Source: a virus
Taxonomy: Duplodnaviria; Heunggongvirae; Uroviricota; Caudoviricetes
Direction: 5' to 3' (one strand)
Length of the DNA: 54,562 nucleotides
Virus record (IMG/VR): IMGVR_UViG_2568526722_000002
Span: 1 to 54,562 of that record
The notes under the pieces: generated by a model
The model's input: only the letters and a program-made list of their open reading frames with translations
The model's database searches: none
What the model was told of the DNA's origin: nothing
Translations under genes and position numbers: made by a program
Part shown: piece after piece, positions 44,820 to 47,067 of the stretch
How the letters are laid out: the number at the start of each line of letters is the position of its first letter
Position numbering within the stretch: position 1 is the first letter of the stretch

Positions 44820-44880
44820 TTGAATACAATCAAATTAAGCCTGAGGCTTAATTTATTGTCAAGCCTGAGGCGAATTTTCA
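44820..44880. promoter_or_regulatory. OR/pR-like operator-promoter region
   Basis: Palindrome TTAAGCCTGAGGCTTAA (44835-44851) and partial copy CAAGCCTGAGGCGAA (44860-44874); minus-strand TTGACA-N17-TTAATT promoter overlaps the operator. Confidence 0.55.
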
Positions 44881-44910
44881 AGTTTAAGCAAAAGGCTTAT
44901 TCTTCTAACC

Positions 44911-45297
44911 ATGAAAGAGAAAACCGTACTTAATCCGATACTTGTCGAACGCCTTTCAGAGCTGAACGGGCGCGGTATGACCAAATCCGATATGGCCAGG
45001 GTTGCTGGGGTAACCCCGCAGTCTGTGAACGGCTGGTTTAAAAAAGGCGTGATCAGCAAGAAATCAGCTCTCGCTGTCGCTGACGCAGCTGGCGTGTCTG
45101 TGCCTTGGTTACTCGGTGAGGATGTCGGCGAGAAGGACGGACTTAAGCCGGACGAACAGCGCCTGCTTGAGCTCTACCGCCAGCTGCCAGAAGAAGAGCA
45201 ACAGAACATGCTCCGCATCTTTTCGATACGTCTTAAGGAACTGGATGAGCTGTATGAGAAGTACATGAAGGGGCGGATTCGCTCGCAGGGGGACTGA
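44911..45297 (+). CDS. phage repressor (CI-like HTH protein)
   Basis: 128 aa; N-terminal HTH (MTKSDMARVAGVTPQSVNGWFKKG); divergent from the cro-like gene. Confidence 0.6.
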   Translation: MKEKTVLNPILVERLSELNGRGMTKSDMARVAGVTPQSVNGWFKKGVISKKSALAVADAAGVSVPWLLGEDVGEKDGLKPDEQRLLELYRQLPEEEQQNMLRIFSIRLKELDELYEKYMKGRIRSQGD

Positions 45298-45437
45298 ATC
45301 GCTTTAGGTTTGTCCTGAATTTTTAGTTCCCATGAGACAATGATGTCTTTACTGGGGGGTGATTCCGCCATTTATGTTAGATTGAAAAAACTATCAATTT
45401 AATTAATATTTATCACTACTACACGGGATGTTTTGCA

Positions 45438-46742
45438 ATGACAGCTGAGATTGTTGTAATAAATAATACTGGAATCGCCCTTGCTGCTGACTCTGCAGTC
45501 ACCACAGAGCATAATAGATTAGTAAAAATAAATAATAGTGCGGAAAAACTATTCGAACTATCTAAACACCATCCCGTGGGGATCATGATTTATAATAATG
45601 CGACACTGGGTGGCGCACCGTGGGAACTTATAATTAAATCCTATAGAAAACAATTGGGGAAAACTAGTTTCCCTACCATTAAAGAATATGTTAATGACTT
45701 TGTAAAATTCATCAATGGTAACTCAGACCTTATAACAAATGAAATGAGAGAGGCTTGCGTTATAAACCTTGTTGTTGATAACCTCAAAGGTTTGATGAGA
45801 TACATTAATGATAATAATGTAGTAAACTATTTAACAATGAACCCCGCCGTTGAACTCGACAATGTTATTTTTCAAAACATAGTTAAGCAAGCCTTTGATT
45901 TAGAGATAGGAATCTTAAGGAATAATCTCTTTTTCGAAGGGTTTGATACAGAAGAGTTTAATGATGCTTTAGCATATATACAAGATTTAATATCGCCATA
46001 CATTTCATCAATTATTGTTCTTGATAACTGTGAAAATATACAGCAAGAGCTTATGGAAAAAGTCATATTATATTCCACTTGTTTAATTTTCAAAGTCCAT
46101 GCTAGTCGTACATATTCAGGGATTGTTATAACAGGTTATGGAGAGGAAGAATATTACCCTTCCATTTGCACTCTTCATATCTACGGCATTTTTAAAAACA
46201 AATTGATGATCCATAATATTGATGATAAATCCCATAATGAGGTAACCAATATGGGGTTTGTTATACCATTTGCTCAAGAAGATGAAGTAGTAACTTTCAT
46301 TGATGGGTGCAACCCTAACATCATTAATTTTAACAGAACTCTTACAGAGGAAGTTTTTGATCGGCTTAATCATTATGTTTCTAGCAATATTTTCCCTGCA
46401 ATGAACAATGGAGTACTAGCCAATCACTTCTCCAGTGAAATTGAGGAACTCAAAAACGTACTTTTACAAGATCACGATACTAAACTTGAAAGCTATATTG
46501 TTAATAACCATACAAATAAAATGATATCGATGTTGCAATCACTTGGGAAGGCAGATCTTGCGTATATGGCCGAATCATTAGTGAACATCACTGCATTCAA
46601 AAGAAAAGTATCACATGATTATGAAACTGTCGGTGGGCCTGTTGATGTCGCTGTGATATCAAAAGTTGATGGATTTGTTTGGGTAAATCGTAAACACTAC
46701 TTCCCTAAAGAGCTAAACTCTAACTACTTTAATCGTCAATAA
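45438..46742 (+). CDS. low-GC protein with N-terminal proteasome/HslV-like (Ntn-hydrolase) signature; candidate exclusion/defence gene
   Basis: 434 aa; starts M-TAEIVVINNTGIALAADSAVT, paralleling the Thr1...G-x-x-L-A-A-D(17) start of proteasome beta subunits and HslV; markedly AT-rich versus flanking prophage; sits at the rexAB-equivalent position. Confidence 0.5.
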   Translation: MTAEIVVINNTGIALAADSAVTTEHNRLVKINNSAEKLFELSKHHPVGIMIYNNATLGGAPWELIIKSYRKQLGKTSFPTIKEYVNDFVKFINGNSDLITNEMREACVINLVVDNLKGLMRYINDNNVVNYLTMNPAVELDNVIFQNIVKQAFDLEIGILRNNLFFEGFDTEEFNDALAYIQDLISPYISSIIVLDNCENIQQELMEKVILYSTCLIFKVHASRTYSGIVITGYGEEEYYPSICTLHIYGIFKNKLMIHNIDDKSHNEVTNMGFVIPFAQEDEVVTFIDGCNPNIINFNRTLTEEVFDRLNHYVSSNIFPAMNNGVLANHFSSEIEELKNVLLQDHDTKLESYIVNNHTNKMISMLQSLGKADLAYMAESLVNITAFKRKVSHDYETVGGPVDVAVISKVDGFVWVNRKHYFPKELNSNYFNRQ

Positions 46743-46759
46743 CACATAAGGAGATATTA

Positions 46760-46864
46760 ATGTCTATAAAGCAAGCTCTCAATAACGCTTATAAAATCAT
46801 TGTAAATCAAAAATTTGGTAATAAAGAACAGCAGCACTCGCCGAAAGGATTTAACCAGCAGTAA
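46760..46864 (+). CDS. unannotated 34-codon ORF downstream of the 434-aa gene
   Basis: Not in the ORF track; ATG at 46760 preceded by AAGGAG at 5-nt spacing; encodes MSIKQALNNAYKIIVNQKFGNKEQQHSPKGFNQQ; terminator follows. Confidence 0.35.
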   Translation: MSIKQALNNAYKIIVNQKFGNKEQQHSPKGFNQQ

Positions 46865-46865
46865 T

Positions 46866-46896
46866 GAAAAAACCCGGCCACAGCGCCGGGTTTTTT
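46866..46896 (+). terminator. intrinsic terminator closing the immunity operon
   Basis: A-tract, stem CCCGGC-N6-GCCGGG, then TTTTTT. Confidence 0.7.
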
Positions 46897-46932
46897 ACAC
46901 CCTCACCCACCATCTCAGCCGCCAACACCCAG

Positions 46933-46976
46933 CCACGAAGTCCCCGATCTCGACCTTAGCGTCGGGATTTTTTTTG
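46933..46976 (+). terminator. second candidate intrinsic terminator
   Basis: Stem CCCGA...TCGGG followed by eight T residues. Confidence 0.4.
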
Positions 46977-47000
46977 CCTGCAATTCGGTGAACATCACGA

Positions 47001-47067
47001 TTAAGCCTGAAACTTACAATCACATTTCGCCTGGAGCTTGACATGATTTAAGTCTCAGGCTTAATAT
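47001..47067 (+). promoter_or_regulatory. OL/pL-like operator-promoter
   Basis: TTGACA (47038-47043), 17-bp spacer, TTAATA; spacer contains the operator TTAAGTCTCAGGCTTAA; half-site copies upstream (ATTAAGCCTGAAAC). Confidence 0.6.

Follow-up and report, generated by a model that had tools for sequence, protein, structure and literature searches.

Putative operator triplets of a lambda-type immunity switch in a Gifsy/Rac-like lambdoid prophage of Escherichia coli

Closest described systems and the region studied

In prophage CP-933P (Sp12) of Escherichia coli O157:H7, the repressor PaaR2 and the YdaS protein footprint a 97-base-pair (bp) intergenic region and repress PR, PRM and PL, of which PL lies beyond the paaA2-parE2 cassette that follows the repressor gene; paaR2 is leaderless and YdaT acts as CII (Jurenas et al. 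2021; PMC8630535). In Rac, a cryptic prophage of E. coli K-12, RacR is an essential silencing factor (PMC5700373). Gifsy-1 (ATCC14028) and Gifsy-3 carry the small repressors GfoR/GfhR, Salmonella proteins that stay uncleaved on induction and are released from DNA by the antirepressors GfoA/GfhA; these are encoded downstream of the replication genes, behind a LexA box and with a dinI homologue as the first gene, and one Gifsy antirepressor acts on heteroimmune repressors too (Lemire, Figueroa-Bossi and Bossi 2011; PMC3121763). The DNA that we analysed comprises positions 1 to 54,562 of IMG/VR record IMGVR_UViG_2568526722_000002 (hereafter the window, 54.6 kb). Its early region mirrors that of lambda and the rest carries Q, lysis, nin and virion genes, so that it is a lambdoid prophage, here described as Gifsy/Rac-like and of E. 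coli.

The subject of this work is a 17-bp palindrome, TTAAGCC-N3-GGCTTAA, that recurs at two places of the immunity region of this prophage. Very probably, its copies serve as operators in a bistable switch of the lambda type. The early region reads P, O, cII-like and cro-like genes leftwards from OR and, rightwards, repressor gene, cassette, terminators and OL/pL, followed by kil, which is the mirror image of lambda. As in lambda, the repressor and cro genes are divergent and flank three 17-bp sites spaced at about 24 bp; past the repressor gene, about 2.2 kb further on, an outward early promoter has another three such sites, and an accessory cassette (rexAB in lambda) stands between the repressor gene and OL. 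Unlike lambda, the window has a repressor of 128 amino acids (aa) without an S24 domain, its operator sequence is different, and its Cro, CII and repressor come from other families (YdaS, YdaT and GfoR-like); moreover, no N-like gene stands right after pL, and kil comes after a leader of about 245 nucleotides (nt).

CP-933P has the same OR1-3/OL1-3 layout, experimentally tested there, and is the closest dissected system of such a layout. Its proteins, however, are distant from those of the window. PaaR2 and the window repressor show 21% identity over 43 aa in BLASTP (E=9e-4) and align over the C-terminal 71 columns only (hhalign probability 71%), the two YdaS proteins lack BLAST similarity, and the YdaT proteins share 28% identity over 83 aa. 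The repeats differ too (GTTTAGTAA), and where the window has an Ntn-fold protein the cassette of CP-933P encodes a toxin-antitoxin pair. The CP-933P locus was recovered via the primer sequences of PMC8630535; a search from a repressor gene of operator class D, defined below, found no O157 prophage. Rac, in turn, shares YdaT, Kil, YdaE and RecE with the window, as well as a YdaS protein that is 36% identical over 64 aa and the same orientation logic. It differs in its repressor, since RacR (158 aa) aligns over 32 helix-turn-helix (HTH) residues only, with 44% identity and no full-length homology, and in carrying sieB, ydaF and ydaG in the cassette position. A comparison of the window's pL leader with the region upstream of kilS/kilR in K-12 Rac gave no meaningful alignment.

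Proposed operator sites and promoters at the two ends of the immunity region

The initial annotation had placed the 17-bp palindrome and close variants between the cro-like and repressor genes (44835-44874) and again at 47001-47066. This repetition is well founded: five strand-matches occur there at up to three mismatches, against 0.08 expected, and none of 100 shuffles reached five (0/100), while TTAAGCC-N3-GGCTTAA is confined to these two places in the whole window. A second scoring considered only the 14 outer positions of the palindrome. With at most 2/14 mismatches it yielded three sites (44835, 44884 and 47048), against 0.2 expected, all of them inside the two regions. The stretches 44859-44875 and 47025-47041, here named OR2 and OL2, have 4/14 mismatches each, a level at which 27 sites are seen and 19.7 expected. 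A strong site is 23-24 bp away from each, and the CCTG(A/G)(G/A)G core is retained in both; for these two reasons we count three sites per region. The OR2 and OL2 regions are also near reverse complements of each other, with 0/14 mismatches in one register. Thus, the annotation was correct about both regions but not about the number of sites, which is three at each end and not one or two, OR3 (44884-44900) and OL2 (47025-41) having been missed.

All three OR sites are within the 104-bp gap (44807-44910) that separates the divergent cro-like and repressor genes, where they overlap both promoters. OR1 (44835-44851) is a perfect 17-bp palindrome, TTAAGCCTGAGGCTTAA, inside the spacer and -10 of the pR-like promoter. 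OR2 (44859-44875; TCAAGCCTGAGGCGAAT), 24 bp centre to centre from OR1, overlaps the pR-like -35 and abuts the -35 of a candidate pRM, and OR3 (44884-44900; TTAAGCAAAAGGCTTAT; 2/14 mismatches) overlaps the spacer and -10 of the latter. The second triple, beyond the repressor gene (47001-47064), overlaps the promoter-like sequence TTGACA-18-TAATAT. It consists of OL3 (47001-47017; TTAAGCCTGAAACTTAC), with three mismatches to the 17-bp palindrome, OL2 (47025-47041; TTTCGCCTGGAGCTTGA), which overlaps the -35 of pL, and OL1 (47048-47064; TTAAGTCTCAGGCTTAA), with one to two mismatches and located inside the spacer and -10 of pL; the positions of all three are conserved in relatives. The site centres are at 44843/44867/44892 in OR and at 47009/47033/47056 in OL, spaced 23-25 bp, with 2166 bp from the centre of OR2 to that of OL2. 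The lambda operators have the same inter-site spacing.

With respect to the promoters, the TTGACA elements previously proposed for both places were confirmed, at 47038-47043 on the plus strand and at 44862..44857 on the minus strand. The proposed 17-bp spacer followed by TTAAT(A/T) fits the pL-like promoter, with TTAATA at 47061-66, but not the pR-like one, where a spacer of 17 bp leads to CTTAAT and one of 18 bp to TTAATT. The pL-like promoter (47038-47067, plus strand) can be read as TTGACA, 18 bp and TAATAT (47062-67), or with 17 bp and TTAATA, and would drive kil, ydaE, an HNH gene, recE and recT. Our scan prefers the 18-bp version, which has 10/12 consensus matches and is the second-best promoter-like match of the region, and the arrangement is conserved in relatives. 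The pR-like promoter (44834-44862, minus strand), composed of the -35 TTGACA (44862..44857), 17 bp and CTTAAT (44839..44834), or alternatively of 18 bp and TTAATT, would drive the cro-like, cII-like, O and P genes; it was not called by the consensus scan because position 2 of its -10 is not A. At this leftward promoter OR1 overlaps with the -10 and OR2 with the -35, and OL1 and OL2 do so at the rightward one.

A candidate pRM-like promoter (44875-44903, plus strand) consists of TTTTCA (44875-80), 17 bp and TATTCT (44898-903), the last hexamer being 7 nt 5' of the repressor ATG, so that transcription would start at or beside the A of this codon (44911). A Shine-Dalgarno sequence is lacking before the repressor ATG, and a -10-like hexamer stands 6-7 nt upstream, as in lambda, where pRM gives a leaderless cI transcript. 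This hexamer follows the pattern TANNNT (TACAAT, TAGAAT, TATTCT), and nearly all relatives have it at this distance from the ATG. The candidate layout would be that of lambda pRM, and it suggests a leaderless repressor messenger RNA (mRNA), as shown for lambda cI and PaaR2 (PMC8630535).

The repressor gene (44911-45297, plus strand) encodes an N-terminal HTH_3 domain (PF01381) and a conserved helical C-terminal domain (phrog_8/phrog_4), and its family comprises 916 homologous protein clusters. HTH_3 is the sole domain detected in the protein; an S24 peptidase domain with an Ala-Gly cleavage site and a Ser/Lys dyad was not found, and the C-terminal half is short and helical. The repressor thus falls outside the CI family, and RecA-stimulated cleavage is not expected. 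A search of PDB found no structure of a close relative, and the matches obtained with the repressor were rejected as spurious ubiquitin-repeat matches to KDGLKPDEQRLL. Proteins of the YdaS and YdaT families fill the places of Cro and CII, respectively, with both PF15943 and PF06254 above their cut-offs. The cro-like gene (44588-44806, minus strand; 72 aa) matches PF15943 (E=1.3e-14; P22_Cro, phrog_35) and the Cro structure 3bd1 in PDB (E=9e-7), and the cII-like gene (44037-44576, minus strand; 179 aa) matches PF06254 (E=2.5e-23) and phrog_163, 'CII-like transcriptional activator' (E=5e-54). The published YdaT site of CP-933P, TTGATT-N6-AATCAA, is absent from the cro-cII region, and hence no pRE could be assigned.

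Proposed operator classes among related loci

The strongest evidence that the palindromes serve as operators comes from a comparison of 30 loci, that is, the window and 29 others: 23 from a scan of one genome per species, which belong to other species and have repressors 61-97% identical to that of the window, E. coli loci L002 and L003, and phages PHB10, SEN34, SW-37 and mEp237. In all 30, three 17-bp sites precede the repressor ATG, at about -75/-51/-26, with OR1 at -76, the OR2 equivalents at -50/-52 and the OR3 equivalents at -26/-27 across the relatives; at five loci (L011, L012, L014, L015 and L032) the OR sites were chosen by hand-picked probes. Downstream, at a distance of 0.47-2.9 kb, 30/30 also have a TTGAC(A) promoter with between one and three sites of that locus's class, arranged as OL3-7 bp-OL2/TTGAC(A)-6 bp-OL1. 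Other matches with two mismatches are few per locus of about 12 kb.

Loci L002 and L003 share their flanks with the window in long stretches of 93-100% identity. Their divergence is limited to 44010-45300, which includes cII, cro, OR and the repressor gene, and to a block of 87 bp around OL (46981-47067); at both blocks they have a different palindrome, (A/G)TAAACC-N3-GATTTA(C/T), in the same positions. The divergence from a class-B relative brackets exactly the regulator block and the 87-bp OL block.

In all, four to five operator classes can be distinguished, which track the HTH sequences of repressor and Cro. Class A (half-site TTAAGYC) includes the window, L005, L006, L025, SEN34 and SW-37, with repressor helix 3 TPQSVNGWFKKG (TPQS) and Cro SVSRWK. 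Class B/E (half-site TAAAYC) has 13 loci, 11 of B and 2 of E, with repressor helix 3 TPQAVNGWFKKG (TPQA) and, in class B only, Cro SVSHWK. Class C (half-site GTAAAGC; L012, L014, L015, L027 and mEp237) shows helix 3 SKQAV(T/S)(G/S)WF(R/K)TG and Cro AVSLWR (L027 and mEp237 left out), and class D (half-site TTAAACA; L016-22) has repressor helix 3 SAQSVNNWFVRG and Cro (T/N)(V/I)SHWR. In the family alignment, the N-terminal HTH half of the repressor changes with the class and the C-terminal half (residues 66-125) is nearly invariant between classes. Such co-variation would be predicted for sites that are recognised by the HTH domains of the neighbouring genes, and it is independent of any single weak site. 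This comparison also supports the earlier proposal that the repressor probably controls divergent early promoters 2.2 kb apart.

Two isolated observations concern these sequences. A stretch inside the repressor gene, GTGAACGGCTGGTTTAA (45025-45041, plus strand), encodes the recognition-helix residues VNGWFK and resembles the half-sites of class B/E; the same stretch gives a match with two mismatches in L023 and L026, which is probably a coincidence. Additionally, in the class A locus L025 (Phytobacter sp. V91, 5890-6010) the start of the repressor open reading frame (ORF) is about 24 nt farther from OR3 than elsewhere and the first ten residues or so are missing, so this gene may be frameshifted or re-started.

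Several points weigh against the interpretation of the palindromes as operators of a lambda-type switch. OR2 and OL2 are weak matches, not significant standing alone, and the -10 of the pR-like promoter is poor, with no A at position 2 under either a 17- or an 18-bp spacer. Each operator class is probably one lineage; with the regulator modules each probably monophyletic, the co-variation counts few independent events and leaves a residue-to-base reading unproven. Class D, which has Ser in helix 3 and yet A where class A has G, breaks a one-residue code. Between classes A and B the difference amounts to only about 1 bp in each half-site and a few residues of the HTH, and their heteroimmunity is assumed. 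Finally, the relation to GfoR, detailed below, rests on primer-encoded termini and an intermediate of 71-73% identity, not on the full GfoR sequence.

Among the alternatives, the one that survives best accepts the operators as genuine but assigns them to a decayed, non-inducible prophage, in which the switch would only silence toxic early genes (kil, ydaS/T), as RacR does. The YdaS, YdaT, Kil, YdaE and RecE families also occur in the cryptic Rac, and the HNH gene downstream of pL is split into two window ORFs (47650-47925 and 47941-48207), both of which suit a decayed element. However, the window holds an apparently complete lambdoid genome, with O, P, nin, Q, lysis genes, terminase through tail genes and RecET, and near-identical regulators are found in the isolated plaque-forming phages SEN34, mEp237 and PHB10. 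We thus consider a switch of this reduced kind unlikely.

Clearly less probable still is that the palindromes are bound by the Cro-like YdaS protein only, or by another factor, and that the 128-aa HTH protein acts elsewhere or via different sequences. The recognition helix of Cro also co-varies with operator class, and for this reason the comparative data cannot separate repressor from Cro. Also, although repressor helix 3 is identical in classes B and E, the two differ in their Cro helices and slightly in their sites. These two classes do share the TAAAYC half-site together with the repressor helix, however, and within the repressor the operator class goes with changes in the N-terminal HTH half, against an invariant C-terminal half. 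Moreover, repressor and Cro share operators in every characterised lambdoid switch, PaaR2/YdaS of CP-933P included.

Last, we give hardly any credit to a reading without operator role, in which the palindromes would act as hairpins of RNA or DNA (terminators, attenuators) or would have arisen by chance in intergenic DNA rich in A and T: a terminator scan does flag 44855..44831 as a hairpin and the OR1 region folds at -13.1 kcal/mol (z=-5.4), but OR1 is the only good hairpin, the other five sites being imperfect palindromes that do not fold, and it was rejected as a terminator since it lies upstream of both predicted transcription starts and would not be transcribed, while chance is excluded by the site statistics and by the presence of same-class sites at both places in 29/29 other loci with unrelated intervening sequences.

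Proposed mechanism, candidate antirepressor operon and cassette

Taking the palindromes as operators, the switch could work as follows. Dimers of the 128-aa HTH repressor would bind the 17-bp sites, composed of TTAAGYC half-sites around a 3-bp centre. Occupancy of OR1 and OR2 would block the leftward promoter for cro-cII-O-P, and the dimer at OR2, adjoining the weak -35 of the repressor's own promoter, may stimulate the latter, whose mRNA is probably leaderless; at high repressor levels, OR3 would mediate autorepression. In turn, OL1 and OL2, 2.17 kb away, would block the rightward promoter for kil-ydaE-recE-recT. Long-range looping between OR and OL is possible, because the C-terminal domain of the repressor resembles that of the octameric PaaR2. 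The YdaS/Cro-like protein would use the same sites in the lytic direction. Induction would proceed not by self-cleavage of the repressor but via a small SOS-induced antirepressor, encoded in a LexA box-dinI-gfoA-like operon (41418-40783), whose predicted target is the repressor's conserved C-terminal half.

From the available residues, the window repressor is a member of the Gifsy GfoR/GfhR family, unlike the self-cleaving CI. This indirect link runs through primer le144 of PMC3121763, which encodes the GfoR residues KEKTHQIN. L016-18, of class D, have the same residues at the N-terminus of their repressors, whose identity to that of the window is 71-73%; class-D repressors in general show 64-71% overall identity to it in the family alignment and 67-73% by best tblastn segment. 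The window resembles the Gifsy prophages in its small repressor without a cleavage domain, in the near-invariant C-terminal half and in the presence of a LexA box-dinI-small ORF operon. It differs from them in its operator class, TTAAGYC, in its host, E. coli versus Salmonella, and in its cassette. The passages searched in PMC3121763 gave no definition of the GfoR/GfhR operators.

A LexA-box-like site, CTGTGTTTTTATACAG (41403-41418), precedes a dinI homologue (41149-41394, minus strand; PF06183, E=4e-26), the first gene of a putative SOS operon, in the position described for Gifsy prophages. It is followed by an ORF of 82 aa (40783-41031, minus strand; phrog_340), a GfoA-like candidate antirepressor whose termini, MSDSALQ.../...VTPPSD, match those encoded by the gfoA primers pp866/pp867 (MSNSALQ, VTPPSDI) of PMC3121763, and whose phage homologues co-occur with repressor homologues in the same phages. 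As in the Gifsy system, these elements are situated outside the immunity region, downstream of the replication genes. Since the repressor has no cleavage domain, an antirepressor operon is expected, and we expect 40783-41418 to be one of the Gifsy type. The combination of an invariant C-terminal half with a variable HTH half in the repressor would also fit the induction of heteroimmune prophages by one antirepressor. A second good LexA box, CTGTTTTTATATACAG (11960-11975), is located about 20 bp upstream of an ORF of 79 aa (11940..11701, minus strand; phrog_3893) that overlaps the start of a UmuD-like gene (11734..11384, minus strand; phrog_3469), forming an SOS-controlled accessory pair near the tail-fibre end. 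This box was dropped as a marker of the antirepressor, because the dinI-linked 82-aa ORF better fits the Gifsy description.

As the initial annotation had indicated, a low-GC cassette is situated between the two operator sets, with a GC content of 0.31-0.36 over 45300-46800 versus 0.50-0.58 in the flanks. It contains a gene of 434 aa (45438-46742, plus strand), whose product has a proteasome-beta-like Ntn-hydrolase fold into which large helical segments are inserted, and an ORF of 34 aa (46760-46864, plus strand) that has its own GGAG ribosome-binding site, moves with the cassette and is present in L002, without any family match; PADLOC gave no match for either. An intrinsic terminator at 46867-46896 (plus strand; -18.9 kcal/mol, z=-4.9, followed by a U-run) closes the cassette, and a second one at 46946-46977 (plus strand) belongs to the phage backbone, being kept just before OL in the heteroimmune L002 and L003 at about 72-78% identity. 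No terminator was seen between 45297 and 45438. The cassette is predicted to be co-transcribed with the repressor gene and would probably be expressed in the lysogen, in the position of rexAB in lambda; a promoter-like TTGAAA-16-TAATAT at 45382-45409, upstream of the cassette gene, may add independent expression.

Across the loci, the interval between repressor and OL is empty in some and holds up to about 2.4 kb of unrelated genes in others. L002 combines another operator class with a relative of the window cassette, L003 carries two unrelated small genes, and some loci have no cassette. On this comparison, the cassette is exchanged independently of operator class. A broader and rather doubtful reading takes the immunity operon of this family to be a hot spot for interchangeable lysogen-expressed genes, with a cargo that here would be an active N-terminal-threonine hydrolase. 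Under it, the proteasome-beta-like hydrolase would be an undescribed superinfection-exclusion or anti-phage function, rexAB-like in position. As a separate part of this reading, classes A and B could form a minimal natural specificity switch, in which recognition-helix Ser38/Ala38 pairs with G/A at position 5 of the half-site.

The remaining early genes are those of the replication proteins P (42358-43047, minus strand) and O (43044-43985, minus strand) and, on the plus strand, those of the pL-like operon. Of the latter, kil (47319-47525; phrog_294, E=2e-34), a septation inhibitor, is the first recognisable one, followed by ydaE (47537-47698), the HNH gene (47650-48207), recE (48339-51728) and recT (51734-52852). 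Elsewhere in the window there are nin genes, Q, holin, endolysin and spanin genes, and terminase through tail genes. The HNH endonuclease 3' of ydaE occupies two window ORFs (47650-47925 and 47941-48207, plus strand) and, in the near-identical genome L001, a single coding sequence of 498 nt; the split may be due to a frameshift, a start-codon or an annotation difference. The leader of about 245 nt between pL and kil (47068-47318, plus strand) starts with a motif, cACCAAG..., that is kept across operator classes (L002, L003, PHB10 and most relatives), and from 47068 on it shows 93-100% identity with heteroimmune relatives. It contains an ORF of 60 aa (47066-47248) without family match. An Rfam scan of 44400-47700 at E<=1 gave sub-threshold chance matches only. 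The early region is present in 11/5426 complete E. coli genomes at 99.4-99.9% identity, and 13 genomes cover at least 80% of it.

The control region is thus of a textbook type, the textbook picture of lambdoid regulation is unchanged, and the induction mechanism of this repressor family has already been published (PMC3121763). The operators are, it appears, explicitly defined here for the first time, and the set of operator classes that share a scaffold and the exchange of cassettes independently of class also appear to be new; a limited full-text search of the literature found no publication defining these operators. Our analysis offers a sequence-level definition of OR1-3/OL1-3 for a widespread and little-studied family of small non-cleavable repressors of Enterobacteriaceae prophages, which spans Gifsy-1/-3, SEN34, mEp237 and PHB10 and has at least four operator classes on one conserved scaffold. 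Immunity groups of these prophages could be predicted from sequence, and the data suggest a basis for the induction of heteroimmune prophages by one antirepressor. The family also provides natural material to study the evolution of repressor specificity, and accessory or defence genes expressed in the lysogen may be sought in the slot between repressor and OL.

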